From IMG/VR virus record IMGVR_UViG_2913147268_000007: a stretch of 22,262 nucleotides of DNA; one strand, written 5' to 3'. Below, piece by piece: positions 1,471 to 22,262 of this stretch. The notes below the pieces were generated by a model. It did no database searches and was not told where the DNA came from. It saw only the letters and a list, made by a program, of their open reading frames with translations. Positions within the stretch are counted from its first letter, which is position 1. Each line of letters begins with the position of its first letter. A program made the position numbers and the translations under genes. This stretch comes from a virus (lineage: Duplodnaviria > Heunggongvirae > Uroviricota > Caudoviricetes).

Positions 1471-1505
1471 CCAAAAAGAAAACCCGCAGTTTTTACGCTG
1501 CGGGC
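1471..1505 (-). terminator. Rho-independent terminator for the minus-strand hok-like transcript
   Basis: Stem acccgcag / ctgcgggc (about 1482-1505); on the minus strand it is followed by the U-tract ttttcttttt (complement of 1471-1481). It faces the serS terminator. Confidence 0.5.
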
Positions 1506-1598
1506 TTGTTGTTCACGTCAACTGGAAATAGGGTGCCTTTTCGACCTTTACCCTGGCAACCGATTGACGGGGAAGTTGCCTTCCCCGTCGCGGTTTCC

Positions 1599-1739: not shown

Positions 1740-1842
1740 AGCGCTTGCTCCTTTTTCGGGGAGGCGCTAACCTATCACTTGCTGAGGGTAGATGGTTAGG
1801 GCCTCGGGTTAACGTTAAAGTTGACTCGGGGCCTTTCCACAT
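1657..1842 (-). CDS. mok-like overlapping reading frame (modulator of killing), 61 aa
   Basis: ORF in a different frame that starts upstream of the hok-like ATG, overlaps it and ends inside the toxin ORF, which is the arrangement of mok relative to hok. Positional call only; its sequence is not diagnostic. Confidence 0.35.
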   Translation of the reverse strand: MWKGPESTLTLTRGPNHLPSASDRLAPPRKRSKRYVAKIAYGHHILRDGNPHHLDAARFAV

Positions 1843-1930
1843 CTGGCCTTCGGGTATTCCCTCCGACCATCAGCCGAAAGGCACCCGCACGTAATCTATC
1901 GCTTTTTTGTTACTCCGGCAATTCTGCCTG

Positions 1931-2191
1931 TTAATTCTGAGATAAAGGCAAACTCATCTGATTGTTTCCCCTGTGTGAAGCTGGCAGATCATGCCACGGG
2001 ATACCTTCTGAAGAGTGAACGCCGGAGGCGTGTTTTGATGTGAATTTATGGAAAGCTTCCAGTGTTGAGAAGCATACGCCGCATTCCAGATTGTTACACT
2101 GGTAATACTTTTGCCGCACGGTGTTTGAATCATTTTCCGGACGACTGGTGCGGATACGGGCAGATGCGCCACAAAGCGGACAACGGAACAT
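1931..2191 (-). CDS. ogr: Ogr/Delta-family zinc-finger late-gene transcription activator
   Basis: N-terminus MFRCPLCGASARIRTSR...YYQCNNLECGVCFST matches the Cys4 pattern of P2 Ogr (MFHCPLC...ARTSR...QC.N..C). RBS AAGGGAGG is upstream of the ATG (complement of 2189-2191). The 3' end is uncertain; the ORF is 86 aa against about 72 aa for P2 Ogr. Confidence 0.8.
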   Translation of the reverse strand: MFRCPLCGASARIRTSRPENDSNTVRQKYYQCNNLECGVCFSTLEAFHKFTSKHASGVHSSEGIPWHDLPASHRGNNQMSLPLSQN

Positions 2192-2231
2192 AGCGACCTC
2201 CCTTAACGTGGTGCTGCCTATTCTAAGTTGC

Positions 2232-3341: not shown

Positions 3342-3498
3342 CTGCTCCCTCCCTGTGCGGCATGGTCGCATGTGCGTGCGGAGGGGGTTACTGCTTTTTG
3401 TTGTCGCCGTGGCGGGAGAACGGCGCAGGGGTGAGATTACGCGCGTGGTGGGTGATGATTGTTGCCGAATCATTTAACGGATACAAGGGGCTGAAGCT

Positions 3499-4683: not shown

Positions 4684-5195
4684 TGGCTGTACCAAAACAT
4701 CTTCGCTTTTTTACGTTGTTTGTGGATGGTGAAAACGAAGTGGGTAAAGTGACATCCGTCACGCCGCCCAAACTGACGCGCAAAACCGACAGCTATCGTG
4801 GTGGTGGCATGATGGGAGCAGTAAGTATTGATCTCGGTCTGGACGACTCCGCGCTTGATGCGAGCTTTGTCATGGGGGGAGCTGTTCGTGCACTGTTCCT
4901 TAAGTATGGCGGCACGATTGACGGCACGCTGCTGCGTTTTGCGGGTGAATATTACACCGATGCAGAAAGCGATCTGTATGAAATCGAGATGCGCGGGCGT
5001 GTGACGGAAATTGATATGGGGGAGGCCAAACAGGGCGAAGCCACATCACACACTTACGCTGTCAAAAACACCTACTACAAGCTGAGCGTTAACGATCGCC
5101 CGCTGTGGGAAATCGACCTGTTGAACCACATCTACCGGAAGGACGGCAAGGACATTGTGCCTGACCGCATTCGTTCCGCGCTTGGGCTTGGCTGA
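4683..5195 (+). CDS. FII: Tail tube protein (P2 FII-like), 170 aa
   Basis: ATG overlaps the sheath stop (TGATG). PKLTRK, YRGGGM, LGLDD, RFAG.Y and MRGR motifs are typical of FII tube proteins. Confidence 0.9.
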   Translation: MAVPKHLRFFTLFVDGENEVGKVTSVTPPKLTRKTDSYRGGGMMGAVSIDLGLDDSALDASFVMGGAVRALFLKYGGTIDGTLLRFAGEYYTDAESDLYEIEMRGRVTEIDMGEAKQGEATSHTYAVKNTYYKLSVNDRPLWEIDLLNHIYRKDGKDIVPDRIRSALGLG

Positions 5196-5250
5196 TAAGT
5201 AATATGCAGGCGGCGCAGTGCGTCGCCTCTGACTGAAAAGGAGACAACTG

Positions 5251-5625
5251 ATGAAAGATATCGATACTGAAACCCGGAATAACACCGTAGCGGATGATGT
5301 GACGTCAGGTGAGGATATGGCTGTCGAACGTGGTGTAAAACTTTCCCGGCCAATTGAGCGTGGTGCCGAAAAAATCACATATGTGGAGATCACCGGGGCT
5401 ATTGAGCAGGCGGGATCCCTGCGTGGTCTGTCGCTGTCTGATGTGCTGAATCTGAAAGCGGATACCATGTTCACGCTGTTGCCTCGCGTGACCTCGCCAC
5501 GACTGGATGAAGTGATGATTAAAAAAATGTCGTCACGCGATTTTATTCAGTTGTGCGCTGTGGCTGTAAATTTTATGAGCGAGCCAGACTCTGGCGCGAA
5601 GAGCGTGCAGGAGACGGCAGCGTAA
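5251..5625 (+). CDS. E: Tail assembly chaperone E (zero-frame product)
   Basis: 124-aa ORF in the position between tube and tape measure that gpE occupies in P2 and lambda G occupies in lambda; acidic N-terminus. Confidence 0.8.
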   Translation: MKDIDTETRNNTVADDVTSGEDMAVERGVKLSRPIERGAEKITYVEITGAIEQAGSLRGLSLSDVLNLKADTMFTLLPRVTSPRLDEVMIKKMSSRDFIQLCAVAVNFMSEPDSGAKSVQETAA

Positions 5626-5789
5626 TCACCCTGGTGTGCTTTGAGCACATCGAAGATCTGGTGGCGGATATTGCCGCCATTTTCAACTGGTCGCCCGCCG
5701 AAATCTTCATGATGACGCCCGGCGAAGTGGTTAGCTGGCGTGAGCGGGCGGCACTTCGCAGCGGGAATGCAGATAATGAAGACTCTTGA
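5251..5789 (+). CDS. E': E+E' fusion chaperone made by programmed -1 ribosomal frameshift
   Basis: The -1 frame is open from 5523 to 5789 and overlaps the tape-measure start. A canonical X_XXY_YYZ heptamer A_AAT_TTT lies at 5568-5574 with the zero-frame codons AAT (Asn) and TTT (Phe). The predicted product is about 179 aa. Confidence 0.6.
5568..5574 (+). promoter_or_regulatory. Candidate -1 frameshift slippery heptamer A_AAT_TTT
   Basis: Fits X_XXY_YYZ in the E reading frame. An alternative slip site is the A7 run at 5521-5527, but a -1 frame stop (TAA 5520-5522) makes tandem slippage there less canonical. Confidence 0.5.
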
Positions 5790-8583: not shown

Positions 8584-8589
8584 GGAGTC

Positions 8590-9084
8590 ATGGCCATGAT
8601 GATGATCTACGGCATGTTTGTTTTTGAGCTGCGCACGCTGCCGCATCAGCAGTTACAGCAAAACAAAAGCTGGCGGCATGTGAAAAATGAACGCGTTAAC
8701 CGTTCAGCAAGCTGGCAGTATATCGGTGCAGGTGATGATCGCATCGTTCTTTCTGGTGTGCTTTATCCTGAAATTACAGGTGGCGAAGTGTCGCTGTCGC
8801 TGCTGACCACGCAGGCGTATACAGGACGACCCTGGCCTTTGATTGATGGCGTCGGGCAGATTTACGGCATGTATGTCCTGACTGAAACGAATACGACCCG
8901 CTCCGAGTTTGATCGCTACGGTAAGGCGAAAAAGATAGAATTTTCACTGACTCTTGAACGCTGTGATGAGGATTTGCGGGAGCGCCTGCAATCCTCATCG
9001 TTCAGTGATATGCTGTCCGGCTTCAAAGATAAGGTGACATCATCTCTTAACAGCGCGGCCAGTTCAGTTAAAGGGCTGTTCTGA
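8590..9084 (+). CDS. U: Tail protein U (P2 gpU-like), 164 aa
   Basis: GMFVFELRTLPHQQLQ...SWRHV.N.RVNRS...LSGVLYPEITGG closely parallels P2 gpU. RBS gaggag upstream. Confidence 0.88.
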   Translation: MAMMMIYGMFVFELRTLPHQQLQQNKSWRHVKNERVNRSASWQYIGAGDDRIVLSGVLYPEITGGEVSLSLLTTQAYTGRPWPLIDGVGQIYGMYVLTETNTTRSEFDRYGKAKKIEFSLTLERCDEDLRERLQSSSFSDMLSGFKDKVTSSLNSAASSVKGLF

Positions 9085-9094
9085 TTTAACACAA

Positions 9095-9122
9095 AAACCG
9101 CTAATGGTCAGATTAGCGGTTT
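9095..9122. terminator. Bidirectional hairpin between convergent U and invertase genes
   Basis: Perfect 11-bp inverted repeat aaaccgctaat / attagcggttt with a 6-nt loop, followed by tcattttcc. The invertase stop codon (complement of 9113-9115) lies inside the hairpin. Confidence 0.55.
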
Positions 9123-9712
9123 TCATTTTCCTGAGTCTGCCCGGTTGTTTCTTCAGTCTGTATATCGCCTACAGGGTGATAACGATAAATCGTCGATGTG
9201 CCAATGCCGTAAATTATTGCCAGTTGTTTTCTGTCGTGCCCGTTTTTGATTAGCCTTGCTATTTGCTCATGCTGTTCTTTTGTCAGCTTCGGTCGACGTC
9301 CGCCTGTGCGCCCCCTTGCGCGCGCTGCCGCCAGCCCGGCCAGTGTACGTTCAACAATTAATTCACGTTCCATTTCAGCCAGGGCACCCATCACGTGGAA
9401 GAAAAAACGCCCCATTGGAGAAGATGTGTCTATGCTGTCGGTCAGACTGCGAAAATTAATCCCTCGCTCCCGTAGTTCCCCGACGAGAGAAATCAGATGT
9501 TTCATGCTTCGCCCGAGGCGATCCAGTTTCCAGACAACCAGCGTGTCACCTTTTTGAAGGCGCTTTAAAGCGCGTTTTAATCCCGGTCGGTCTGTCTTTG
9601 TCCCGCTTAATTTATCTTCAAATATTTGTTCACATCCTGCACAAACAAGAGCGTTTCGTTGCAGGTCTGTATTCTGGTCATTTGTTGATACCCTTACATA
9701 GCCAATCAGCAC
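9113..9712 (-). CDS. Serine recombinase, DNA invertase of the Hin/Gin/Cin/Pin family
   Basis: N-terminus (V)LIGYVRVSTNDQNTDLQRNAL carries the catalytic serine; C-terminal HTH GRRPKLTKEQHEQIARLIKNGHDRKQLAIIYGIGTSTIYRY matches the Hin DNA-binding domain. The likely start is GTG at complement 9710-9712, with GGGAGA upstream; the track ORF begins at TTG 9730. Confidence 0.92.
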   Translation of the reverse strand: MLIGYVRVSTNDQNTDLQRNALVCAGCEQIFEDKLSGTKTDRPGLKRALKRLQKGDTLVVWKLDRLGRSMKHLISLVGELRERGINFRSLTDSIDTSSPMGRFFFHVMGALAEMERELIVERTLAGLAAARARGRTGGRRPKLTKEQHEQIARLIKNGHDRKQLAIIYGIGTSTIYRYHPVGDIQTEETTGQTQENENR

Positions 9713-9766
9713 ACTGAATCTCCCGTCCAAAAGCGCAAATCATGCCATGCAGGCCAGAAACGGCCA

Positions 9767-9792
9767 TTATTTAAAACCTCGGTTTACGAGAA
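9767..9792. promoter_or_regulatory. gix/hix-like invertase crossover site
   Basis: ttatttaaaacc tc ggtttacgagaa is an imperfect 12-2-12 dyad around the AAACC..GGTTT core typical of hix/gix/cix sites. It lies about 55 bp from the invertase start. Confidence 0.7.
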
Positions 9793-10410
9793 CTCGGCAC
9801 AAGCGGGGAGAAAATACCGTTACTCAGTACAGCGAATACCTGGACTAATCGACAAACATTCAGCGGTGGCCTTTCTGGTGAACTATCCGGCAATGCTTCT
9901 ACAGCTGCAAAATTAAAAACTGCCAGGAAAATAAGCAATGTGGCTTTTGATGGTTCCTCCGATATCACATTAAAAGCAAGTCATGTTGGTGCGTTTGCCT
10001 TAGGGAAAACAGGAAGCACCGTTGCGAATGATAAAGCAGTTGGATGGAACTGGAGTAGCGGAGCCTATAACGCAACTATTAGTGGTGCATCAACGTTAAT
10101 TATTCATTTTTATATGGGAGAAGGAAGTTGTCCTGCAGCTCAGTTTCGGATTAATTATAAAAATGGCGGTATTTTTTATCGTTCAGCCCGTGATGGTTAT
10201 GGTTTTGAAGCCGACTGGTCCGAATTTTACACCACCACCAGAAAACCTTCAGCAGGAGATGTTGGTGCACTGCCGTTATCTGGTGGTCAACTGAATGGTG
10301 CACTGGGTATCGGAACATCCAGTGCTCTTGGCGGTAATTCGATTGTATTGGGTGATAATGACACGGGCTTTAAACAAAATGGCGATGGTAATCTGGATGT
10401 TTATGCTAAT
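9778..10410 (+). other. Silent promoterless tail-fibre C-terminal cassette, 3' end lost in N-run
   Basis: The frame opens exactly at the crossover site, with an in-frame TAA at 9772-9774 immediately upstream. It encodes LGLRELGTSGEKIPLLSTANTWTNRQTF..., identical at the start to the expressed fibre cassette at 15261 onward and diverging toward the C-terminus. Confidence 0.7.
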
Positions 10411-10420
10411 NNNNNNNNNN
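10411..10420. other. Assembly gap (10 N)
   Basis: Literal run of n. Confidence 1.
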
Positions 10421-10501
10421 TTAACTGATATCACTAAAAATGCCGCGTACGGCGTCGATATCGGCAGCCTGGTGCTGGAAATCAATAATCCCGCAGCATA
10501 A
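10421..10501 (+). other. 3' end fragment of an unidentified upstream gene
   Basis: Open frame reading ...LTDITKNAAYGVDIGSLVLEINNPAA* from the gap edge. By P2 synteny the gene upstream of R would be a lysis gene, but the sequence is not diagnostic. Confidence 0.3.
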
Positions 10502-10524
10502 GGAAGAGCAGGAGAGCAAAACAG

Positions 10525-10992
10525 ATGCTTAAGACAAACAGTCTGCGAGAGTCCATGCTTCATGGGTGTCGGTGGTGCCAGGCTAATCCCGAGAAATTCA
10601 CCATTTTCGTGGAGAGCGGCAACATTGAAACGACCGGAGAAGCGCCCTCGTTTGTTTACCGCTATCAGATGGTGATGTTTGTCATGGATTACGCCGGAGA
10701 GCTGGACGACCTCACGCTGCCGCTGCTGGCGTGGTTATCCGAAAATCAGCCACAGTTGTTGCTCAATCCGGAGCGTAATCAGGACATCAAATTTTCTGCC
10801 GTTATCAATGACGATGACAGCGCCGATCTCCTGTTTACGCTCCCCCTGCGGGAACGCGTTCGCATCACGCGCAACAGTCAGGGCACACCGCAGGCAGAAC
10901 ACCTGCCGGAGCCAAAACCCCGTCTGCCTTCTTCCGAAGGCGACTGGTCGCATGTATTCCAGGATGTGACGTGGGGTGAAAGCGATGGATAA
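10525..10992 (+). CDS. R: Tail completion protein R-like, 155 aa
   Basis: MLKTNSLRE... and LPLLAWLSENQP parallel P2 gpR (MLKPDSLRR..., VPVLAWLRENQP). Same length as P2 R; RBS aggag upstream. Confidence 0.75.
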   Translation: MLKTNSLRESMLHGCRWCQANPEKFTIFVESGNIETTGEAPSFVYRYQMVMFVMDYAGELDDLTLPLLAWLSENQPQLLLNPERNQDIKFSAVINDDDSADLLFTLPLRERVRITRNSQGTPQAEHLPEPKPRLPSSEGDWSHVFQDVTWGESDG

Positions 10993-11620
10993 GGCATTCA
11001 CCCGCGTGGATGAAACCTTTGAGGCTATCCGCGACAGCCTGAATCAGCAGGCCATCAATAACATCGCCAGAAAGCTGGCACAGGATTTACGTCGCGCCCA
11101 GCAGGCACGTATCCGGTCACAAAAAGCGCCGGACGGGACCGAATGGACACCACGCAGACGCCGCGTAACCCGGATACAGGAGCGCATTCGCTTTATCTGG
11201 AATAACGAAGCACGCACGCTGAAAAACTGGCATCACGACACAGGGAAATACGGGCGAACCATTACCGGGTGGGATGAGGATAAAAACAATATCCGCACGT
11301 TTTACCGGGATGACATCGACCGTTTTCTGGAAATACGCACCCGGCGCATCAACCAGGACAGCACAAAGCGCGTCCCCATGTTCGTAAAACTGCGCACCGC
11401 CCGCTACCTGAAAGCCCGTGCAGATGCCTCCGGTGTGACGGTGGGTTACAGCGGCGTGGCCGCACGTATTGCACGCGTTCATCAGTTCGGTGAGCGCGAT
11501 CAGGTTGCGCCGGGCATTTTCACCGATTACCCGGTACGTGAGCTGTTGGGTATCAGCCAGGCAGATGAGCGCCTGATTTATAACACGGTGCTGGGCCGGA
11601 TTGCGGAGGCTGTACGGTGA
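10985..11620 (+). CDS. S: Tail completion / virion morphogenesis protein S-like
   Basis: Assigned by its position between R and V and its basic, Arg-rich character. The start is ambiguous between GTG 10976 and ATG 10985 and overlaps the R stop. Confidence 0.6.
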   Translation: MDKAFTRVDETFEAIRDSLNQQAINNIARKLAQDLRRAQQARIRSQKAPDGTEWTPRRRRVTRIQERIRFIWNNEARTLKNWHHDTGKYGRTITGWDEDKNNIRTFYRDDIDRFLEIRTRRINQDSTKRVPMFVKLRTARYLKARADASGVTVGYSGVAARIARVHQFGERDQVAPGIFTDYPVRELLGISQADERLIYNTVLGRIAEAVR

Positions 11621-12198
11621 GCGCAGAACTCATGCGACTGCTGAGCAACATCATCCGCACCGGGATCATCTCTGAAGTTGATGAGAAGTCCTGGCGCGTG
11701 CGCGTTCGCAGCGGCGAACTGGAAACAGGCTGGTTGCGCTGGAACACCACGCGCGCGGGAGCCTTCAATGTGTGGCTGCCGCCATCACCAGGCGAACAGG
11801 TGGTAATTGCCTGCATTGGCGGCAACCCGGAAACCGCCATGATAATTGGCAGCCTGTGGAGTGATGCCAGTCCGGCCCCCGGCAAAAGCCTGAAAGAAAT
11901 CGTGGTCAGCGCGCCGGATGGCGCGGTGTTCCGCTACGACGCAGACGCTGGCGCACTGAGCGCCAGCGGCATGAAAACAGCCACCCTGCAGGCATCCGTC
12001 AGCGTGACACTGGATACGCCCGTCGTGGAATGCACAAACCTTCTGAGAACGGCGACGCTTGACGTCACAAAAGAGGGAAAGATGAGCGGCAATATCACGC
12101 ACAGCGGCGGCAATTTCACCTCAAACGGCATTACCGTGCATACGCATAAGCACGGTGGCGTTAAAGGTGGCAGCGATTCGACAGGAGGCCCGCAGTGA
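11617..12198 (+). CDS. V: Baseplate spike protein V, 193 aa
   Basis: IRTGIISEVD near the N-terminus and C-terminal NGITVHTHKHGG..GGSDSTGG match P2 gpV (IRTGII..., NGKVLHTHKHPGDSGGTTG). GTG start overlaps the S stop (GTGA). Confidence 0.88.
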   Translation: MSAELMRLLSNIIRTGIISEVDEKSWRVRVRSGELETGWLRWNTTRAGAFNVWLPPSPGEQVVIACIGGNPETAMIIGSLWSDASPAPGKSLKEIVVSAPDGAVFRYDADAGALSASGMKTATLQASVSVTLDTPVVECTNLLRTATLDVTKEGKMSGNITHSGGNFTSNGITVHTHKHGGVKGGSDSTGGPQ

Positions 12199-12545
12199 CA
12201 ACCCGCTACACAGGAATGAACCCGGACGGGACGGGAAACCTGAACGATATGGAGCACCTGAAACAGTCAGTCAGGGACATCCTGATCACCCCGCTGGCAA
12301 GCCGGGTTATGCGACGGGAATATGGCAGCCTTGTGCCTGATTTGATTGACGAACCCATGAATAACACCACGCGTCTGCAATGCATGAGTGCTGCCGTGAT
12401 TGCGCTGACACGATGGGAACCCCGCATTGCCCTGGACGCCATCGACGTTGTCTGGAAGGCAGGAGGCCGCGCCGGGGTGACGCTGTCGGGCACTGTCATG
12501 CAGACCATGCAGAATGTTGAATTAACCATCACGCTGAGAGAGTAA
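12195..12545 (+). CDS. W: Baseplate protein W (GPW/gp25 family), 116 aa
   Basis: MTTRYTGMN...ITPLASRVMRREYGSL...WEPRI parallels P2 gpW (MTARYLGMN...RTPVGSRVMRRDYGSL...WEPRV). GTG start overlaps the V stop. Confidence 0.88.
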   Translation: MTTRYTGMNPDGTGNLNDMEHLKQSVRDILITPLASRVMRREYGSLVPDLIDEPMNNTTRLQCMSAAVIALTRWEPRIALDAIDVVWKAGGRAGVTLSGTVMQTMQNVELTITLRE

Positions 12546-12548
12546 ATC

Positions 12549-13445
12549 ATGCCTGCTGTTGATCTTTCCCAGTTACCGGAACCCGCCATCATCGCGGAGC
12601 CTGATTTTGAGGCAATTCTGGCTGACACAAAGGCCATGATGATTGCGTCCTATCCTGCCGAACAGCGTGAAGCCGTCTCCGCCGCGCTGGAGCTGGAATC
12701 AGAACCCCTGAACGTTATCGCTCAAACCATGTCGTTTCGTGAAATGCTGTTACGCCAGCGGGTTAACGAGGGCGCACGCGCCTGCATGTTAAGCCACGGT
12801 TCAGGGACAAACCTGGACAACCTCGCGGGCAATATGAACACAAAGCGCCTGGTTATCACTCCGGCAACGGATACCACCGACGCGGTGATGGAGAGCGACA
12901 CCTCGCTGAGACTGCGGGCGCAGCGGGCGTATGACGGCCTGAGTGTTGCTGGCCCGTCAGGTGCATACGAGTATTTTGCACGCAGCGCCAGCGGTCTGGT
13001 GCGTGATGCGCGGGCCATCAGCCCGTCTCCGGCCTGTGTGACGGTTTCCATTCTGTCCACTGAAGGCGACGGCACAGCAACGGAGGCGTTGCTTAATACC
13101 GTTCGCGCCGTTCTGAATGCAGAGGATACCCGCCCGGTGGCCGACCGACTGACCGTACAGAGCGCCAGCATCGTGACATGGCGGCTGAATGCAAAACTGT
13201 ACTTTTACCCCGGCCCGGAATCCGAACCTATTCTGGCTGCGGCTGAATCGTCGTTCAGGAAGTGGCTGGCTGAGCAGGGGCTTATTGGTCAGGACGTGGC
13301 GTTGTCAGCCATTGCTGCCGCACTTCATGTGCACGGCGTGCAACGCGTGGAGATAATCGAACCCACACAGAATATGGCCATCAGCGACATACAGGCGGCG
13401 CGCTGTGAGTCATTCACCATCAGCGAAGGTGGGCGTAATGAGTAA
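12549..13445 (+). CDS. J: Baseplate protein J, 298 aa
   Basis: Size, position after W and sequence character fit P2 gpJ (about 302 aa). Confidence 0.85.
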   Translation: MPAVDLSQLPEPAIIAEPDFEAILADTKAMMIASYPAEQREAVSAALELESEPLNVIAQTMSFREMLLRQRVNEGARACMLSHGSGTNLDNLAGNMNTKRLVITPATDTTDAVMESDTSLRLRAQRAYDGLSVAGPSGAYEYFARSASGLVRDARAISPSPACVTVSILSTEGDGTATEALLNTVRAVLNAEDTRPVADRLTVQSASIVTWRLNAKLYFYPGPESEPILAAAESSFRKWLAEQGLIGQDVALSAIAAALHVHGVQRVEIIEPTQNMAISDIQAARCESFTISEGGRNE

Positions 13446-13968
13446 TTCACTGTTACCGCCATCAGCCAGCAATTTCATGCGTTGCGCCGAAGCTGTCGGA
13501 GCGCGCATTACAGACATCCCGGTAGACCTCAACACGCTGTGGTCACCGGACACCTGCCCGGTGCATCTGCTGCCTTATCTCGCCTGGGCATTTTCCGTTG
13601 ACCGCTGGGATCGCAACTGGCCGGAAGAGACAAAGCGACAGGTGATTCGTGATGCATGGCTGATACACCGACACAAAGGGACCATCAGCGCACTGCGCCG
13701 GGCCATTGAGCCGCTGGGATACCTCATTCGCGTGTCTGAGTGGTGGGAGTTCGGCGGAGAACCGGGAACATTTACCGTTGAAGTCGGCACGCTGGACAGT
13801 GGCGTGACGGAGGAAATGTATCTGGAAATGGAGCGGTTGATTGCTGATGCCCGCCCGGTCAGCCGCCACATGACAGGGCTGAATATCATTCAGGAGATTC
13901 AGGGAGATATTTTCGCGGCGGCAGCAACTTACGACGGCGAAGTCATTACCATTTATCCGGACGATTAA
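13438..13968 (+). CDS. I: Baseplate protein I, about 176 aa
   Basis: ATG at 13438 overlaps the J stop (ATGAGTAA). The length equals P2 gpI and it sits immediately upstream of the tail fibre gene. Confidence 0.85.
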   Translation: MSNSLLPPSASNFMRCAEAVGARITDIPVDLNTLWSPDTCPVHLLPYLAWAFSVDRWDRNWPEETKRQVIRDAWLIHRHKGTISALRRAIEPLGYLIRVSEWWEFGGEPGTFTVEVGTLDSGVTEEMYLEMERLIADARPVSRHMTGLNIIQEIQGDIFAAAATYDGEVITIYPDD

Positions 13969-13970
13969 GC

Positions 13971-15970
13971 ATGAGTACCACAACACGTAAATTTAAAACC
14001 GTTATCACCGATACGGGTGCCAAAAAATTAGCTCAGGCAGCCGCGCCAGATGGTAAGCCTGTCCGCCTGACTCATATGGCCGTGGGCGACGGTGGCGGCA
14101 CGTTGCCCACACCAGACAGTAAGCAGACCCGTCTGGTGCATGAGGTGTGGCGACATACTGTTAATCGCGTCATCCTGGACGCAACACATCAGAACCGCAT
14201 TATTGCGGAGCTGGTTATTCCTCCTGAAACGGGCGGATTCTGGATCCGGGAAATTGGTGTATTTGATGAGCACGGCGATTTAATCGCGGTGGGCAATACT
14301 GCCGAAAGTTACAAGCCAGCCGTTGCCGAAGGGTCCGGTCGTGCACAAACATTTCGCACCATTCTGACCGTATCCAGCACTGCCACCGTGGTGCTTACCG
14401 TGGATAACACCATGGTGATGGCCACAGTGGATTACGTGGATGACAAACTGAAAGAGCATGAACAGTCACGACGTCACCCGGACGCCTCGCTGACCGCAAA
14501 AGGCTTTGTTCAACTCAGTAGCGCCACTAACAGCGTGTCTGAAACGCAGGCTGCAACGCCGAAAGCAGTAAAGGCCGCGTATGACCTTGCTAACGGTAAA
14601 TATACTGCGCAGGATGCCAGCACGACGCGAAAAGGCCTTGTCCAGCTCAGTAGCGCCACCAACAGCACGTCTGAAACGCAGGCTGCAACGCCGAAAGCAG
14701 TAAAGGCCGCGTATGACCTTGCTAACGCAAAATATACCGCTCAGGACGCCACGACGGCACAAAAAGGGATAGTCCAGCTCAGTAGTGCCACCAACAGCAC
14801 GTCTGAAACACTGGCCGCGACATCGAAAGCTGTTAAGGCGGTAATGGATGAAACGAACAAGAAAGCGCCCTTAAATAGTCCTGCACTGACCGGAACGCCA
14901 ACAANNNNNNNNNNNNNNNNNNNNNNNNNNNNNNNNNNNNNNNNNNNNNNNNNNNNNNNNNNNNNNNNNTCGTTATGGCTGCGATTGCCGCCCTTGTAGA
15001 TTCGTCACCTGATGCACTGAACACGCTGAACGAGCTGGCTGCGGCGCTGGGCAACGACCCGAATTTTGCGACCACCATGACTAACGCGCTTGCGGGTAAG
15101 CAACCGAAAGATGCCACCCTGACGGCGCTGGCCGGACTTACTACTGCGGCAGGCAAGTTTCCGTATTTTACGGGGAATGATGTCGCCAGCCTGGCAACCC
15201 TGACAAAAGTCGGGCGGGATATTCTTGCGAAATCGACCGTTGCTGCCGTTATCGAATACCTCGGTTTACGAGAACTCGGCACAAGCGGGGAGAAAATACC
15301 GTTACTCAGTACAGCGAATACCTGGACCAATCGACAAACATTCAGCGGTGGCCTTTCTGGGGAACTGTCCGGCAATGCCGCTACTGCAACAAAGCTGAAA
15401 ACAGCACGAAAAATTGCTGGAGTTGGTTTTGATGGTTCTAGCGATATTTCAATTAGTGCCAAAAATGTCAATGCATTTGCACTCCGACAAACAGGTAATA
15501 CTGTTAATGGTGATACATCCGTTGGATGGAATTGGGATAGTGGTGCATATAACGCCATGATTGGTGGTGCATCTGCATTAATTCTTCACTTTAATATAAA
15601 TGCTGGTAGCTGTCCTGCCGTACAATTCCGTGTGAATTATAAAAATGGTGGCATTTCCTACAGGTCGGCTCGTGATGGTTATGGGTTTGAATTAGGTTGG
15701 TCAGATTTCTATACCACGACACGAAAACCTTCAGCGGGAGATGTTGGTGCATATACGCGGACAGAATGTAACTCAAGGTTTATTACAGGTATTCGCCTTG
15801 GCGGTCTGTCATCTGTTCAGACATGGAATGGTCCCGGCTGGTCTGACAGGTCAGGTTATGTCGTTACGGGTTCAGTTAACGGAAACCGTGATGAATTAAT
15901 TGATACAACACAGGCAAGGCCAATTCAGTATTGCATTAATGGGACGTGGTATAACGCGGGGAGTATTTAA
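13971..15970 (+). CDS. H: Tail fibre protein (gpH-like), interrupted by a 65-N gap at 14905-14969
   Basis: The N-terminal domain, the stretch ...PALTGTPT [gap] ...YVMAAIAALVDSSPDALNTLNELAAALGNDP..., and the EYLGL junction all parallel P2 gpH. The C-terminus ends with the conserved ..INGTWYNAGSI tip motif. The reading frame across the gap cannot be verified. Confidence 0.85.
14499..14870 (+). repeat. Three tandem 132-nt (44-aa) repeats in the tail fibre shaft
   Basis: Repeated unit KG(F/L/I)VQLSSATNS.SET.AAT.KAVKA.... The repeats also create the spurious antisense ORF 14466..14762. Confidence 0.8.
14905..14969. other. Assembly gap (65 N) inside the tail fibre gene
   Basis: Literal run of n. 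Confidence 1.
15250..15275. promoter_or_regulatory. In-frame gix-like crossover site inside the tail fibre gene
   Basis: ttatcgaatacc tc ggtttacgagaa; its right half is identical to the site at 9767-9792. It encodes IEYLGLRE at the constant/variable boundary. Confidence 0.65.
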
Positions 15971-15972
15971 CG

Positions 15973-16506
15973 ATGATGCACTTAAAAAACATTACTGCTG
16001 GCAACCCTAAAACAAAAGAGCAATACCAGCTAACAAAGCAATTTAACATCAAATGGCTTTATTCAGCTGATGGAAAAAACTGGTATGAGGAACAAAAGAA
16101 TTTCCAGCCAGACACTTTGAAAATGGTCTATGACCATAACGGCGTTATTATTTGTATTGAAAAGGATGTTTCAGCAATTAATCCGGAAGGCGCAAGCGTC
16201 GTTGAATTACCTGATATTACAGCAAATCGCCGGGCTGATATTTCGGGGAAATGGATGTTCAAAGATGGCGTAGTGGTAAAGCGAACTTATACCGAGGAAG
16301 AGCAGAGGCAACAAGCGGAAAATGAAAAGCAGAGCCTGTTGCAACTTGTCAGGGATAAAACTCAGCTATGGGACTCACAGCTACGGCTGGGCATCATTTC
16401 CGACGAGAATAAACAAAAATTAACCGAGTGGATGCTCTATGCGCAGAAAGTCGAATCCACAGACACCTCCAGCCTGCCAGTAACATTTCCCGAACAACCT
16501 GAATGA
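15973..16506 (+). CDS. G: Tail fibre assembly chaperone (Tfa, gpG-like / Mu U-like), 177 aa
   Basis: Starts 2 nt after the fibre stop. [14 protein letters not shown]...[20 protein letters not shown]... is the typical Tfa pattern. Confidence 0.9.
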   Translation: MMHLKNITAGNPKTKEQYQLTKQFNIKWLYSADGKNWYEEQKNFQPDTLKMVYDHNGVIICIEKDVSAINPEGASVVELPDITANRRADISGKWMFKDGVVVKRTYTEEEQRQQAENEKQSLLQLVRDKTQLWDSQLRLGIISDENKQKLTEWMLYAQKVESTDTSSLPVTFPEQPE

Positions 16507-16510
16507 GACA

Positions 16511-16539
16511 AGGCCCGATAACGGGCCTTAATTTTTATT
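16511..16539. terminator. Bidirectional hairpin terminator between convergent tfa genes
   Basis: Stem aggcccg / cgggcct with loop ataa, then taatttttatt. Confidence 0.6.
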
Positions 16540-16939
16540 CAGGCTTTTGTGGCCATTCAGGATTTGCCGTATCCACACGGTTGACCAGAACACTGTAGCG
16601 TTCCCATGCTTCCAGTCGTGTGCGTTCCTCGTCTGTTGCCATATTCAGCCTGACAGCGCGTTCCAGCGGCTGGATGACTGATTCAGCTTCGGAAAGCAAT
16701 GCGGCCTTTTGTGATTCGGCCTGTTGTTGCTGTTCGTCAGCCGTATAAATCCGTTTAACCACAGCTCCGTCCTTAAACATCCACTTACCGGAATCATCGG
16801 TCCGACGATTGGCCGTTATATCGGGAACCTCGACGACGCTAAAACCTTCGGGATTAAGCGTGGAGGCATCTCTGGTGATGGCGACAATAATATTATTTTC
16901 ATCGTAAACAATCTTTATGGTGTCTGGCTGAAAGTTTTT
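16535..16939 (-). CDS. Tail fibre assembly chaperone, second type; N-terminus lost in N-run
   Basis: ...[46 protein letters not shown]...PEWPQKPE. Convergent with the tfa at 15973 and of a different C-terminal type. Confidence 0.85.
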
Positions 16940-16949
16940 NNNNNNNNNN
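16940..16949. other. Assembly gap (10 N)
   Basis: Literal run of n. Confidence 1.
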
Positions 16950-17240
16950 TACGTCCATGTTATGCGCTTTGTTCCCGGAAGCATTCAAAGTAATAAGACC
17001 ATAAATATTACGGGGCGTGTTAATCCCTCGGATTACGGTAACTTTGATTCCCGTTATGTGAAAGATGTTCGACTTGGTTCNNNNNNNNNNAACGTCCATG
17101 TTATGCGCTTTGTCTCCGGAAGCATTCAAAGTAATAAAACCATAAATATTACAGGGCGTGTTAACCCCTCGGATTACGGTAACTTTGATTCCCGTTATGT
17201 GAAAGATGTTCGACTTGGTTCACAGCAATATTATGGAGTG
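16950..17240 (+). repeat. Two near-identical 141-bp copies separated only by a 10-N gap
   Basis: 16950-17090 and 17101-17240 differ at about 5 positions and end at the same point, so this is probably an alternate-allele or collapsed-repeat contig. Confidence 0.8.
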
Positions 17241-17405
17241 AACAACTGGCAAACATGGAATTTCCAGTGCCCTTCAGGTCATGTATTGTCTGGTATTAAT
17301 GTTCAGGATACAGGGTCTAACTCTGCCGATAATATAGCGGGCGTTTATTACAGACCCGTTCAAAAGTATATAAATGGCACCTGGTATAATGTAGCGAGCG
17401 TTTAA
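16950..17405 (+). CDS. Tail fibre C-terminal variable cassette, 5' partial; contains a 10-N gap
   Basis: Encodes ...[35 protein letters not shown]...[17 protein letters not shown] with the conserved fibre-tip ending. There is no start, constant region or crossover site on this block. Confidence 0.75.
17091..17100. other. Assembly gap (10 N)
   Basis: Literal run of n. Confidence 1.
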
Positions 17406-17406
17406 T

Positions 17407-17940
17407 ATGATGCACTTAAAGAACATAAAAGCGGGTAATGCTAAAACACTGGAACAGTATGAGTTAACAAAGAAACACGGAGTTATCTGGCTTTACTCTG
17501 AGGACGGAAAAAACTGGTATGAGGAAGTGAAAAACTTTCAGCCAGACACCATAAAGATTGTTTACGATGAAAATAATATTATTGTTGCCATAACCAAAGA
17601 TGCCTCCACACTTAACCCTGAAGGTTATAGCGTCGTTGAGATTCCTGATATTACCGCCAACCGGCGTGCTGACGACTCAGGTAAATGGATGTTTAAAGAT
17701 GGCGCAGTCATTAAACGTGTATATACCGAAGAAGAGTTGCGCCTACAGACGGAAAACCAGAAAAAAATATTATTACAGCAGGCCAGAGAAAAAACGCAGT
17801 TCTGGCAAACACAGCTTACTTTGGGGATTATCACTGATTCAGACAGACAGCAACTGATGAACTGGATGCGATACGTGCAACAGGTTGAGACAACTGATAC
17901 CTCGGTTCTTCCTGTAACATTCCCGGAACCACCAGAATAA
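17407..17940 (+). CDS. Tail fibre assembly chaperone, 177 aa
   Basis: [30 protein letters not shown]...; starts 1 nt after the upstream fibre cassette stop. Confidence 0.9.
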
Positions 17941-17943
17941 GAA

Positions 17944-17970
17944 AAGGCCCGTACGGGCCTTAATTTGTTG
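17944..17970. terminator. Bidirectional hairpin terminator between convergent tfa genes
   Basis: Stem aggcccg / cgggcct with loop tac, then taatttgttgtt. Confidence 0.6.
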
Positions 17971-18498
17971 TTATTCTGGTTTCTGTGGCCATTCAGGCTT
18001 TGCAGTATCCACACGGCTGACCATAACGCTGTAGCGTTCCCATGATTCCAGTCGTGTGCGTTCCTCATCAGTTGCCATATTCAGTCTGACAGCACGTTCC
18101 AGCGGTTGAATCACAGACTCCGCTTCGGAAAGCAAAGCGGCTTTTTGTAACTCTGCCTGCTGTTGCAGTTCCTGTTTTGTATATTCCCGCTTTACTACTT
18201 TACCATCCAGAAACTTCCAGTTTCCCGAGATATCGGCGCGACGGTTGGCTGTTATATTCGGTAACTCAACAACACTTAACCCGTCAGGGTTAAGTGTTGA
18301 TACGTCTTTCTCAATACAACGAATAATCCCCTTCTGGTCATAAGCTATTTTTAAAGTATCATCCTGAAAGTTTTTTAATTCGTCATACCAGTTTTTACCG
18401 TCTTCTGTATATAGCCAGATAACGCCAGCTTTTTTCGTAAGCTGATACTGCTCAATGGTTTTGGGGTTTCCGGCGGTAATATTTTTCAGATGTTGCAT
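17971..18498 (-). CDS. Tail fibre assembly chaperone, 175 aa
   Basis: [23 protein letters not shown]...[11 protein letters not shown] caGGAGaatat is upstream of the ATG (complement of 18496-18498). Cognate to the minus-strand fibre cassette upstream of it. Confidence 0.9.
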
Positions 18499-18513
18499 AT
18501 ATTCTCCTGATGG

Positions 18514-19888
18514 CTATGCCTGTTCAACGTTATACCAGTTACCAGAAATGTATTTTTGTAGTGGTCGTGACACCATCCAGTCATCTCCATCAACCTCACC
18601 AATAATTTGCAATCCTGTTGTCACATGACCATTACCTGGTTCGCAAAGTCCTCCGCGATATAATGTGTCAGAACGTCTGCCTCCCAGACGCACATTTCTG
18701 ATAAAAGAACTATTCAGGTAATCATTTAAGTTTGACCCCCAGCACCCACCAAATATATTTCCATCGGTGTTATAACGGACGCCACCCGCAATAAGAGCAC
18801 CCGGTGAAATAAAGGATTTATCGTTCGGGTTAAACTGCCATAAAGCATCATTACCGCCATCGCCACGCATATGAATACATGGAACCGGAAATCCATACTG
18901 TTCTGTCAGTAAATACCCAAAGCTGACCGCGCCGGGATAGCCCTGTCCATTGCGAATGGACAAGCCCTTAACTATCGGCACGTAAAGACCACCAGGAGTG
19001 GGATTCCAGGCAAACTGCGTCTGAACAAAAGGCGCGGTGGCATTATTCAACTGGTCTGCAAATGCGCCACTTCCATCAGGAATTATTCCCTGATGAATAT
19101 ATGCAACCCGCTTATAAAAATCAGCAGATGCGGGTTGAAGCCCAAATGCCAGTTGTCCATTTGAATAGAATAAAAGGACACCGTCGCCGCCCTGTTTAAT
19201 ACCAGTGTCGTTATCTCCGAGAGTAATGGAATTACCGCCCAGTGCGTTATCTGTACCAAGCGCCAGCCCACCATCAATTTTGGCCCCGTGGCTGACAGAT
19301 ATAGCACCTGTTCTCAGATTTATAGCGAATGGCCTTAATGGGCCGATATCACCGTTTTCGCCTTGTCCTTCAGCCGTCGGAATGAAATGAAGAAAATCTT
19401 CTGAACGACGGAAAATAAGACCGAAGGCATCATTGAAAATTCGCAGCGCATTCACCGTGCCAATTTTCAGTTCTCCGGTCATTTTATCGCCGGAACGCTG
19501 AACGGCGTTACCAGCCTTGTTTACCGTTTCCTGTAAACCGAGGTATTCGATAACGGCGGCAACGGTCGATTTCGCAAGAATATCCCGCCCAACTTTTGTC
19601 AGGGTTGCCAGACTGGCAACATCATTCCCCGTAAAATACGGAAACCTGTCTGCCGCAGTAGCAAGCCCGGCCAGCGCCGTCAGGGTGGCATCTTTCGGTT
19701 GCTTACCCGCAAGCGCGCTAGTCATGGTGGTCGCAAAATTCGGGTCGTTGCCCAACGCCGCAGCCAGCTCGTTCAGCGTATTCAGTGCGTCAGGCGACGA
19801 GTCCACGAGGGCAGCGATCGCAGCCATAACATAAGCCGTGCTTGCGATTTGGGTATTATTCGTTCCCTGTCGCGCAGTTGGTGTTGTT
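18514..19888 (-). CDS. Tail fibre gene in reverse orientation (constant-region copy plus distinct C-terminal cassette), 5' partial at N-run
   Basis: Encodes ...TTPTARQGTNNTQIASTAYVMAAIAALVDSS...AVIEYLGL followed by a unique 340-aa C-terminus ending ..ISGNWYNVEQA*. The constant part is about 94% identical at DNA level to 14970-15275. Confidence 0.8.
19528..19553. promoter_or_regulatory. gix-like crossover site, inverted relative to 15250-15275
   Basis: ttcctgtaaacc ga ggtattcgataa is a near-perfect match to the gix-type 26-bp dyad pattern and lies in-frame at the EYLGL junction of the minus-strand fibre. Confidence 0.65.
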
Positions 19889-19898
19889 NNNNNNNNNN
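19889..19898. other. Assembly gap (10 N)
   Basis: Literal run of n. Confidence 1.
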
Positions 19899-19917
19899 TT
19901 TGGACGGGAGATTCAGC

Positions 19918-20100
19918 GTGCTGATTGGCTATGTAAGGGTATCAACAAATGACCAGAATACAGATCTGCAACGAAACGCTCTTGTTTGTGCAGGATATGA
20001 ACAAATATTTGAAGATAAATTAAGCGGAACAAGGACAGGCCGACCTGGATTAAAACGTGCTTTAAAGCGCCTTCAAAAAGGTGACGCACTGGTTGTCTGA
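19918..20100 (+). pseudogene. Truncated second copy of the invertase gene (N-terminal 60 codons)
   Basis: GTG-LIGYVRVSTNDQNTDLQRNALVCAGYEQIFEDKLSGTRTGRPGLKRALKRLQKGDALVV then TGA. About 94% identical to the 5' end of the invertase at 9113..9712 and diverges or stops where the full copy continues WKLDRLGRS. Confidence 0.8.
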
Positions 20101-20159
20101 AAACTGGACTGACTGGTTCACTGTATGCGGCATCTTGTCGTGCTGGTGGTGGAAGCCTA

Positions 20160-20245
20160 GAAAAAGTATCGGGTGTTACTGAACCGTGTTGATACATCAA
20201 CTGCACCTGATATTGAGTGGCCTACGAACCCTGTCAGGGAGTAAT
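20160..20245 (+). pseudogene. Degenerate 3' remnant of a tail-fibre-assembly gene
   Basis: About 90% identical to the 3' end of the tfa fragment at 21207-21293 (..[18 protein letters not shown]) but frameshifted. Confidence 0.6.
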
Positions 20246-20297
20246 CATTGGGATTATGCCGCAGCACGTCTTAAGCAAGAACGTGCTGCGGTTGGAT
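20165..20297 (+). repeat. Direct repeat copy 1 (tfa 3' end plus hairpin)
   Basis: About 135 bp, roughly 90% identical to 21207-21345. Includes the hairpin ccgcagcacgt...acgtgctgcgg. Confidence 0.7.
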
Positions 20298-20298
20298 G

Positions 20299-20955
20299 CT
20301 ATTTTTTCCCTGAAGCGGAAAACATTACTACAGTACCTTGAACCTTGGTTTTAACATTCTCGAAATGCTCTGAGAGTATATGTGTTAAGCCTTCTTCGGA
20401 ATCTTTTGTGTTTGAAAAGATGCCTTTCTGATTGTAAATGCGCATCAGTTTTTGACCGAAGCTATTGTGCACAACTCCATCGCCAAGAATTGTGGCTCCG
20501 TATAGAGTTCCATCGTCAGTTAAGGCCTGCGCCGCATTGCGTATTACACAGCTTTTTGTAGATATATTTCCAGGCAGGCAGTGAAGAAGGTAAAACATGG
20601 AAATGGAATCAAATTGACCATGTAACGCCGCGGGATAAGGTTCAAAAACATCATGGCTAATTTTATGTTTAATTTTTGATTCCCCAGCCCTTGTAGATGC
20701 CGCGTTCAGGCTAGCTTCGTTCAAATCCATTAAAGATATCAGACTACTCTCAGGTACGTGAGTAAGGTAAAACCCAGTTCCAACGCCAATATCCAGATGG
20801 TTGTTACCTAAATGTTCCAGAAAGTGTGGAAGAAGGTGTTCCTTTGTAGGACATCCCCATGCAAGCCGATTTGATACTCCCAAAACCCACCAGTCATAAA
20901 GCTTTAGGGTAAGTGGTGTGTAAATTTTAGCCCCATCATCTGTGTTTTTTTTCAT
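20299..20955 (-). CDS. Class I SAM-dependent methyltransferase, about 218 aa
   Basis: Glycine-rich SAM-binding motif I LDIGVGTGFYL and downstream Rossmann-fold blocks. No DPPY/NPPF-type DNA methyltransferase motif. The start is probably the ATG at complement 20953-20955 (GGTGA upstream) rather than the track start at 20967. Visibly AT-rich compared with the flanking phage genes. Confidence 0.75.
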   Translation of the reverse strand: MKKNTDDGAKIYTPLTLKLYDWWVLGVSNRLAWGCPTKEHLLPHFLEHLGNNHLDIGVGTGFYLTHVPESSLISLMDLNEASLNAASTRAGESKIKHKISHDVFEPYPAALHGQFDSISMFYLLHCLPGNISTKSCVIRNAAQALTDDGTLYGATILGDGVVHNSFGQKLMRIYNQKGIFSNTKDSEEGLTHILSEHFENVKTKVQGTVVMFSASGKK

Positions 20956-21023
20956 TGATTTCACCATGTTATAGTTTTATTTGTGAATTAAATCAATTAT
21001 GGCGATGAATTACAAGGGGTTAA

Positions 21024-21293
21024 ATGCTGCCGCAGCATAGCGATATTGAAATAGCCTGGTATGCTTCGATACAGCAGGAGCCGAATGGCTGGAAGACCGT
21101 CACCACACAGTTCTACATCCAGGAATTCAGTGAGTATATTGCGCCACTGCAGGATGCTGTAGATCTGGAAATCGCAACGGAGGAAGAAAGATCGTTGCTG
21201 GAGGCATGGAATAAATATCGGGTATTGTTGAATCGTGTTGATACATCAACTGCACCTGATATTGAGTGGCCTGCAAATCCTGTCAGGGAGTAA
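21024..21293 (+). CDS. C-terminal fragment of a tail fibre assembly protein, 89 aa, possibly a pseudogene
   Basis: ...[31 protein letters not shown], the conserved Tfa C-terminus. It lacks the N-terminal MxHLKNI...PDITANRR half. Confidence 0.6.
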
Positions 21294-21345
21294 TCATTGG
21301 GATTATGCCGCAGACACGTCGTATGCAGGAACGTGCTGCGGTTAG
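21207..21345 (+). repeat. Direct repeat copy 2 (tfa 3' end plus hairpin)
   Basis: Partner of 20165-20297. The hairpin ccgcagacacgtc...gaacgtgctgcgg follows the stop. Confidence 0.7.
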
Positions 21346-21407
21346 TTTGTGAGCTTTCGATAGTGGTTGTTATTTTTGCCCTTATTTGTTCCGGAGGCCA
21401 TGGTTCA

Positions 21408-21578
21408 ATGGTCCGTCTGCCCCCTGTGGTGATGTCAGCAAAATCAGCCACTGCGCGAACCACAATAGCCCGGGAAGATGCTGAAGATCACCAGGTAAAG
21501 CTGTCAGCGCAGAAACTGGAAGAACTGCTCGCATCAATGGTTAAGGATGAGGTTGATCGCAATGATGGGATTTATTGA
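21408..21578 (+). CDS. Hypothetical small protein, about 56 aa
   Basis: ATG at 21408 with GGAGG 10 nt upstream; MVRLPPVVMSAKSATARTTIAREDAEDHQVKLSAQKLEELLASMVKDEVDRNDGIY. No family recognised. Confidence 0.3.
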   Translation: MVRLPPVVMSAKSATARTTIAREDAEDHQVKLSAQKLEELLASMVKDEVDRNDGIY

Positions 21579-21673
21579 CGTCAGCGAGAGCAGAAGGAAG
21601 AACTGAATAACCTGAATGATTTACGCTCAATCAGAGCGATGGCGATTAGCGGCAATCACGCTCGATAAAATTA

Positions 21674-21699
21674 ACCCCGGTGATCATCCGGGGTTTTGC
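21674..21699. terminator. Bidirectional hairpin terminator
   Basis: ccccgg tgatcat ccgggg followed by ttttgc, placed between the small + ORF and the convergent Rha gene. Confidence 0.5.
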
Positions 21700-21704
21700 A
21701 TTCA

Positions 21705-22262
21705 TTAAAACCGCATCAACCTTTCCACCAATTGTTCTTTACGGGCAACGATCCACCCATGTTGCTCCAGATAAAATTTAAACCGTTCCAGCGTGCATAC
21801 CATCGCATCGGCGGGGACTTTTTCTGTGAACTCGACCTGACCGTGTTTATCGAAGTGGATCAGTAATGCGCATCCATTATTTGGGGCGGGGGAGTTTTGT
21901 GCTGCAGGAGGACGTTTGTGGAGTTCTTCTTCCATTGCGTTAAATTTTTCAATGTAAGCTTCTTTTAGTCTGGCTGCTTTTTTGCCAGTAAATCCCATTA
22001 CGAGGAACATGAAGCCGTCTTTTGTGATCAGGTAGCATCGTGATTCACGTTCTGCGCCGTTGCCAATTTCGACAGTCTGAACATCGGCCGAAAAGTTGGC
22101 TGATGTAAATTCGGGAGAGCAGTCGAGTGTGTCAATCTTAGCTAAAACGTGTTTATGTTGTTTATCGAAGTAGTCGGCAACAGCTTGAGAGGTGGTAACC
22201 AGGCGACCATCTTTGAAAAAGACTTTTGGTGACTCGTTAGAAAAAGTTATAGCTGTATTCAT
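21705..22262 (-). CDS. Rha-family phage regulatory protein (antirepressor-like)
   Basis: N-terminal region MNTAITFSNESPKVFFKDGRLVTTSQAVADYFDKQHKHVLAKIDTL...CYLITKDGFMFLVMGFTGKKAA...YIEKFNAMEE is the Rha-domain pattern. The ATG sits exactly at the window edge, so the true start cannot be confirmed. Confidence 0.75.
   Translation of the reverse strand: MNTAITFSNESPKVFFKDGRLVTTSQAVADYFDKQHKHVLAKIDTLDCSPEFTSANFSADVQTVEIGNGAERESRCYLITKDGFMFLVMGFTGKKAARLKEAYIEKFNAMEEELHKRPPAAQNSPAPNNGCALLIHFDKHGQVEFTEKVPADAMVCTLERFKFYLEQHGWIVARKEQLVERLMRF

Follow-up and report, generated by a model that had tools for sequence, protein, structure and literature searches.

An apparent multi-cassette tail-fibre switch in a viral scaffold very probably joins two Mu G-type switches from separate Escherichia coli prophages

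We analysed a 22,262-nucleotide stretch of DNA from a tailed virus (Caudoviricetes; IMG/VR record IMGVR_UViG_2913147268_000007), hereafter the window. Positions 13971-19888 had been read in an initial annotation as an invertible host-range switch in which two Mu G-like units stand in tandem behind one tail-fibre gene and offer four or five alternative C-terminal segments (cassettes). We conclude, with a probability of about 93%, that this four-to-five-cassette array is a chimeric draft scaffold joining two independent two-cassette switches of the Mu G / P1 C type, which come from two prophages in the genome of an ST131-like E. coli. One of the prophages is P2-like and lies at serS; the other is lambdoid and lies at trp. 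The parts from which invertible Mu G-like fibre switches had been recognized are all present, namely gix-like crossover sites, cognate tail-fibre assembly (tfa) genes and a Gin-family invertase, and both switches flip in nature.

Make-up of the scaffold

The window is a scaffold of six contigs (A-F) joined by runs of N at 10411-10420, 14905-14969 (65 N), 16940-16949, 17081-17090 and 19889-19898. We fetched the P2-like prophage locus of EC958 (L001) and the lambdoid prophage locus of JJ1886 (L002) and mapped the contigs onto both:

1-10410, contig A, reversed: EC958 P2-like prophage at serS, L001 28775 to 18366, 99.95% identical
10421-14904, contig B, forward: L001 11422-15905, 100%
14970-16939, contig C, forward: L001 15957-17926, 100%
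16950-17080 (131 bp), contig D, reversed: L001 18365 to 18235, 100%; a piece of P2-like cassette 2
17091-19559, contig E, forward: JJ1886 lambdoid prophage at trp, L002 9001-11469, 99.9%
19533-19888, contig E, reversed: JJ1886 L002 8377 to 8022, 100%
19899-22262, contig F, forward: JJ1886 L002 11499-13862, 99.9%

The region 13971-19888 crosses three of the N-joins and touches a fourth at its right-hand end. Positions 13971-17080 map to the P2-like prophage at serS, and positions 17091-19888 map to the lambdoid prophage at trp. In the finished ST131 genomes JJ1887, AR_0058 and Ec55 these two loci are ~0.52 Mb apart. The cassettes that had been placed in tandem behind one fibre gene, as a multiple-inversion system, sit in two prophages at distinct loci, an outcome that the initial annotation itself had named as refuting its reading.

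The N-joins are no evidence that the contigs adjoin, and they also make no biological sense. Contig D directly continues contig A, which ends at 10410 (L001 18366), yet it has been placed 6.5 kb off and in the wrong, reversed orientation relative to contig C. At the N-run the assembly gene tfa2 is cut and its start codon is lost. The 65-N run at 14905-14969 stands for only 51 bp of EC958, at the place where likeness to the lambdoid fibre gene stf starts.

Most contig ends coincide with the borders of sequence that is common to both prophages, which is a signature of repeat-induced fragmentation in short-read assembly. The shared stretches are the final ~356 bp of the constant parts of the fibre genes H (P2-like) and stf (lambdoid), which are 94% identical; a 1.28-kb cassette with its tfa gene, 96% identical overall and 99.2% over the first 648 bp; and the first ~210-266 bp of both invertase genes (~95% identical). 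A 303-nucleotide (nt) inverted repeat in the window (14972-15274 versus 19528-19830, 93% complementary) is formed by the homologous constant parts of the two prophages. Likewise, a 141-nt 'tandem repeat' at 16937-17218 consists of the two prophage copies of one cassette, flanking an N-run. Outside the shared cassette, the 10.4 kb of contig A differ from EC958 only at 7852-7855 in the tape-measure gene, where four consecutive bases are changed.

A megablast search with 13000-20300 against 5,426 complete E. coli genomes returned none (0/5,426) in which at least 80% of this segment lies in one place. ST131 genomes cover 56% of it at 99.7%, and 16950-22262 matches another locus of the same ST131 genomes at 99.8%. 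We also built chimeric junctions, in which the P2-like constant part is fused to cassette B and the lambdoid constant part to cassette 1, and searched for them in the same genomes. The best full-length matches reached 98.3% and 97.9%, and none reached 99%. Both values lie near those of parental or unrelated junctions and give no sign of cassette exchange between the prophages.

Real tandem units behind one fibre gene, forming a multiple-inversion system with four or five cassettes in the manner of p15B Min, are almost certainly the wrong explanation for this scaffold. Every join is an N-run, one of them leaves contig D reversed and detached from contig A, and tfa2 is without a start codon. Contigs E and F match, at 99.9-100%, a lambdoid prophage from another part of the chromosome, neither the layout nor a chimeric constant/cassette junction at 99% or above occurs in any complete genome, and each real locus has two crossover sites. 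A tandem array would fit with the presence of three gix-like sites and four tfa genes within 10 kb of scaffold, and since the ends of the H and stf constant parts are 93-94% identical, fusions between the units would stay in frame.

Several points weigh against a chimera of two prophages. The argument rests on near-identical relatives of the source isolate and not on the isolate's own long reads, and it leaves the scaffold order A-B-C-D-E-F unaccounted for. The shared cassette (~648 bp, 99.2%) is collapsed here, and short contigs alone cannot assign its flanks to one copy or the other. Finally, the action in trans on the lambdoid switch that is discussed below is an inference.

Crossover sites and cassette types

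Compared with Mu gix (TTCCTGTAAACCGAGGTTTTGGATAA, taken from AF083977), the gix-like sites have 1-4 changed positions; according to 100 shuffles, no gix-like 26-mer is expected by chance. The sites are:

9767..9792, minus strand: invertase side of the P2-like switch, TTCTCGTAAACCGAGGTTTTAAATAA; corresponds to L001 18984-19009
15249..15274, minus strand: within H, in frame over ..IEYLGL.., TTCTCGTAAACCGAGGTATTCGATAA
19528..19553, plus strand: hybrid site of the lambdoid switch, TTCCTGTAAACC-GA-GGTATTCGATAA

The reference loci contain exactly two such sites each, in inverted orientation: 16236-16261 (minus) and 18984-19009 (plus) in the 33 kb of the P2-like locus, and 8357-8382 (minus) and 11438-11463 (plus) in the 23 kb of the lambdoid locus. 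Allowing up to 6 substitutions from Mu gix, we found in neither locus any further crossover site that would permit partial inversions. With two sites, two cassettes and two chaperone genes, each prophage therefore has a standard Mu G / P1 C-type switch.

The in-frame site at the EYLGL boundary of H had been recognized correctly, one base away from the position given here. Its partner had been taken to be the inverted site at 19528-19553. That site is present, but it belongs to the lambdoid stf gene; the actual partner is the site at 9767-9792, beside the invertase. In the 19528-19553 site, the left half is identical to that of the invertase-side site in JJ1886 and the right half to that of the JJ1886 fibre-gene site, with the exchange at the central GA. 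An exact hybrid at this point is the product expected of strand exchange by a serine invertase. The site is the product of an inversion with strand exchange at the central dinucleotide.

The fibre tips encoded in the window do end with the conserved ..Q(K)YI.G.WYN.. motif that had been pointed out, for example ..IQYCINGTWYNAGSI and ..LQKYISGNWYNVEQA. The initial annotation further held that a different cassette precedes each tfa gene, giving four or five in all. Cassette 2 of the P2-like prophage (9778-10410 plus 16950-17080) and cassette A of the lambdoid prophage have 98% protein identity, so that there are three distinct cassette types and not four or five. What had been counted as a fifth cassette, at 9778-10410, is the N-terminal portion of cassette 2, with which cassette 1 is actually paired. 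The four tfa genes, described as two convergent pairs, are all present and all carry the Caudo_TAP domain, but the pairs are not adjacent, being those of two prophages. A hairpin does stand between the convergent genes of each pair, as predicted.

The P2-like switch at serS

The first prophage is a member of Xuanwuvirus (P88-like), and Escherichia phage 503458 matches its switch at 96.4%. In finished genomes the order is H (constant part and cassette 1), tfa1, tfa2 on the minus strand, cassette 2 on the minus strand and the invertase gene. In the window this switch is spread over 13971-17080 and 9113-10410:

9113..9712, minus strand: intact Gin-family serine DNA invertase, 199 amino acids, WP_000905061.1 in EC958
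9778..10410, plus strand: cassette 2, N-terminal part, silent in the window orientation; assigned by the mapping of contig A and continued in contig D (16950..17080)
13971..15262, plus strand: H constant part, interrupted by the 65-N run; contigs B and C match L001 at 100%
15263..15970, plus strand: cassette 1, Mu S' (G-) type, the one expressed in the window state; 88% amino acid identity to the variable part of Mu S' over 165 residues, with an identical tip
15973..16506, plus strand: tfa1, chaperone for cassette 1; Caudo_TAP (PF02413), 97% identical to Mu U'
16510..16539, no strand: terminator-like hairpin (16510-16529) between the convergent tfa1 and tfa2, G+C-rich with a T-run
16535..16939, minus strand: tfa2 (Mu U type), 3' two-thirds, cut by the N-run; Caudo_TAP; contig C ends at L001 17926

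The full-length tfa2 of EC958 is 90% identical to Mu U, and the EC958 orthologue of H has the Pfam domains Phage_tail_fib and Phage_fiber_2. Cassette 1 is joined to the H constant part in the window; in AR_0055 it is cassette 2 that is joined to it. Within H, positions 14498-14761 form 132-nt tandem repeats (Phage_fiber_2 repeats) that are 88% identical.

The lambdoid switch at trp

The second prophage has, in the finished genome of JJ1886, the order stf (constant part and cassette A), tfaA, tfaB on the minus strand, cassette B on the minus strand and a truncated invertase gene. Its switch occupies 17091-20100 of the window:

17091..17405, plus strand: tip of cassette A; contig E matches JJ1886 L002 at 99.9%
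17407..17940, plus strand: tfaA, chaperone for cassette A; Caudo_TAP, WP_000972097.1 in JJ1886
17944..17961, no strand: bidirectional terminator-like hairpin, G+C-rich with T-runs on both strands
17971..18498, minus strand: tfaB, chaperone for cassette B; Caudo_TAP, 78% identical to Mu U
18514..19539, minus strand: cassette B, in frame with the stf constant part (flipped relative to JJ1886); the open reading frame 18514-19827 consists of constant part, EYLGL and cassette B
19540..19888, minus strand: end of the stf constant part; 100% identical to L002 8377 to 8022 and only 94% to the P2-like H
19918..20100, plus strand: truncated invertase pseudogene of 60 codons, with TGA for Trp61; annotated in JJ1886 as an incomplete recombinase

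The segment L002 8377 to 8022 falls inside the JJ1886 gene annotated as 'prophage tail fiber N-terminal domain'. Downstream of the invertase stump (19918-21343) we noted remnants of tfa 3' ends and 148-nt direct repeats (20147-20293 and 21196-21343, 88.5% identical). These repeats bracket a gene for a class I S-adenosylmethionine-dependent methyltransferase (20299-20967, minus strand), apparently a moron that entered between degraded copies of tfa.

Orientation of the switches in complete genomes

Each switch was found in both of its states. Contig E holds the lambdoid switch in the state opposite to that of JJ1886; the state of the window occurs in 242 complete genomes, and that of JJ1886 in at least 68 and probably 120-160. 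For the P2-like switch, the junction of the constant part with cassette 1 was present at 99% or above in 117 records and the junction with cassette 2 in 106. AR_0055 carries the same P2-like prophage as EC958 (same protein accessions) with the segment flipped.

Reversible inversion of the fibre genes of P88-like and BP-4795-like prophages has been confirmed by polymerase chain reaction (PCR) in ST131 isolates, with mixed orientations within single isolates (bioRxiv 10.1101/2022.05.07.487787). We found no literature on tail-fibre inversion in EC958 itself; it was the ST131-wide literature that yielded this preprint. In three genomes whose isolate names suggest a series, NZ_CP023849 (4/0), NZ_CP023844 (4/1-1) and NZ_CP023826 (4/4), the lambdoid or the P2-like switch is not oriented alike, which hints at flipping on short time scales.

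It could be argued that the lambdoid switch is a frozen relic whose orientation differences are an old inherited polymorphism. The truncation of its invertase at codon 61, and the replacement of the downstream part by tfa remnants and the methyltransferase gene, would agree with this. We nevertheless regard a relic as very improbable: each state is found, at 99-100% identity, in about 120-240 genomes, the isolates 4/0 and 4/1-1, related by name, differ in state, and mixed orientations were seen by PCR in single ST131 isolates (bioRxiv 10.1101/2022.05.07.487787). In addition, both crossover sites and the gin-like 5' stretch are intact in the lambdoid prophage, and the genome that carries it also codes for an intact Gin-like invertase.

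Invertases and proposed mechanism

The invertase encoded at 9113-9712 matches structures of Mu Gin (4m6f, 3uj3) at E = 3e-100 and has the Pfam domains Resolvase (PF00239) and HTH_7 (PF02796). It appears to be mosaic, with residues 1-130 almost identical to Gin and a divergent C-terminal DNA-binding domain (..GHDRKQLAIIYGIGTSTIYRYHP..), which presumably resembles that of Hin more. Its ..EQIARL.. motif has the Gln/Arg/Leu residues that are reported to be conserved in Fis-dependent invertases (PMC3798978).

In the lambdoid gene, TGA at 20098-20100 replaces Trp61 and homology is lost after ~20108. The stump cannot make an enzyme, and inversion of the lambdoid switch therefore probably needs an invertase in trans. 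Invertases of the Gin/Pin family act on each other's sites in trans. Most likely, the enzyme that flips the lambdoid switch comes in trans from the P2-like prophage or is another resident invertase. For the ST131 isolates of the preprint, it is noted that only the P88-like prophage and a third prophage encode an invertase (bioRxiv 10.1101/2022.05.07.487787).

Over their first ~200 nt, both invertase genes are almost identical in sequence to Mu gin at its 5' end. An enhancer is reported to lie within the Mu gin gene (Kahmann, 1985, as cited in PMC3798978), and in the Hin/Gin invertasome the invertase acts on two sites together with the Fis-bound enhancer (PMC3798978).

We propose that the serine invertase cuts both 26-bp sites at the central dinucleotide and inverts the segment between them. 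After inversion, the constant part is followed by one or the other fibre C-terminus together with the matching chaperone, and the host range of the particle would change with the fibre C-terminus, each presumably having its own receptor specificity. Inversion may be assisted, as in Mu, by a Fis-bound enhancer within the 5' part of the invertase gene. In the lambdoid prophage, the stump retains the gin-like 5' stretch in cis, and catalysis would be provided by an intact invertase elsewhere in the genome.

Sequence exchange between the two prophages

The cassette shared by the two prophages is unevenly conserved. Positions 9763-10410 and L002 8353-9000 are 99.2% identical over 648 bp, and the rest of the shared stretch is ~94-96% identical. 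At 10076, 10081 and 10122, the bases of contig A match the lambdoid copy and not EC958. The 99.2% identity and the mixed bases suggest either that the prophages recently underwent gene conversion with each other or that the assembly has collapsed a repeat.

The same bases could also reflect a real rearrangement between the prophages in the sequenced isolate, for example an inversion of ~0.5 Mb by recombination at the gix sites or between the cassettes, which are nearly identical. In the shared cassette, the positions where contig A stops (L001 18366) and contig E starts (L002 9001) are equivalent, so that a path from A to E is possible, and a fibre-gene 'translocation' has been described among ST131 prophages (bioRxiv 10.1101/2022.05.07.487787). 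Such a rearrangement, however, would yield the paths A-E and B-C-D'-F, unlike the order seen; the chimeric junctions are missing from the complete genomes at 99% or above, and a collapsed repeat consensus explains the mixed bases equally well. We consider it very improbable, and a draft scaffold that joins two unrearranged prophages is the reading that we retain.

A broader idea, conceivable if still unlikely, is that the two or three prophages of this lineage form a recombination network, in which one intact Gin-like invertase drives the orphan switch in trans and occasionally recombines sites or cassettes between prophages. The 99.2% shared cassette, the mixed bases at 10076-10122 and the reported ST131 'translocation' are hints in this direction. 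In the 5,426 genomes, however, the searches for chimeric junctions turned up no product of this kind. If there were such a network, a given tail could in the course of time try out three or more receptor-binding tips, and the chromosome could undergo large inversions.

Comparison with known systems

Both switches resemble the Mu G/Gin system, also found in D108 and SfMu, with its order of constant part, gix, Sv-U, U'-Sv' on the opposite strand, gix and invertase. The core of the P2-like cassette and tfa genes is 89-91% identical in DNA to Mu/D108. Mu itself is a transposable phage, whereas the switches here are carried by a P2-like myovirus prophage and by a lambdoid one, with constant parts of the P2 gpH type and the lambda Stf type. 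Mu Sv also differs from cassettes 2/A and B over most of their length. The C segment of P1 and P7, with Cin, likewise switches fibres between two states through an invertase of the same family, and its DNA is 90-93% identical over the cassette and tfa core. P1 is a plasmid prophage and has long inverted repeats inside its C segment; the 303-nt inverted repeat of the window differs in coming from the constant parts of two prophages.

The closest relatives of the P2-like switch are in Xuanwuvirus (503458, P88). Phage 503458 matches the whole switch and the invertase at 96.4% over 85% of the length and differs only in part of cassette 2, hence the 85% coverage. For the lambdoid switch, e14 P/Pin and the defective lambdoid stf-tfa-pin modules of Rac and Qin offer a parallel in their alternative stf C-termini, tfa pairs and Pin-like invertase. 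The difference is that the lambdoid invertase here is a 60-codon stump, while the segment is still found both ways.

The likeness to p15B Min and the R64 shufflon is superficial and lies in the many-cassette look of the scaffold only. In both of these systems a single uninterrupted segment contains several crossover sites, and the shufflon relies on Rci, a tyrosine recombinase. In contrast to p15B Min, the real loci have two sites each, and the three sites of the window sit on contigs of two prophages. In contrast to the R64 shufflon, the recombinase is a serine invertase and not Rci acting on sfx repeats.

The underlying biology is known: it is textbook switching of the Mu G type, and inversion has already been reported for these ST131 prophages. 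The scaffold is a caution that N-joined draft scaffolds over invertible, repeat-sharing prophage regions can mimic novel multi-cassette systems. An invertase stump of 60 codons beside a switch that is found both ways in hundreds of genomes would be a natural illustration of trans action between co-resident prophages.

Other features of the P2-like prophage

The serS gene at the start of the window (1-1293, plus strand) marks the attachment region. Between ogr and serS, at the prophage end, lies a gene for a Hok/Gef-family toxin (1599-1739, minus strand; EC958 annotation). The gpD open reading frame at 2232-3473 (minus strand) encodes 413 amino acids, of which the Pfam domain Phage_GPD spans residues 135-393 only. 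At this place the RefSeq annotation of EC958 has a 266-residue product and a small pseudogene, and the N-terminal ~134 residues of the 413-residue frame are unexplained.

The block from FI to U (3499-9084: sheath, tube, gpE, tape measure and gpU) lies on the strand opposite to H-tfa and D-ogr, unlike in canonical P2. We considered this block as a product of the invertase and dropped the idea, because Xuanwuvirus phages such as 503458 share the gene order, so that the arrangement characterizes the group as a whole and is no local inversion.

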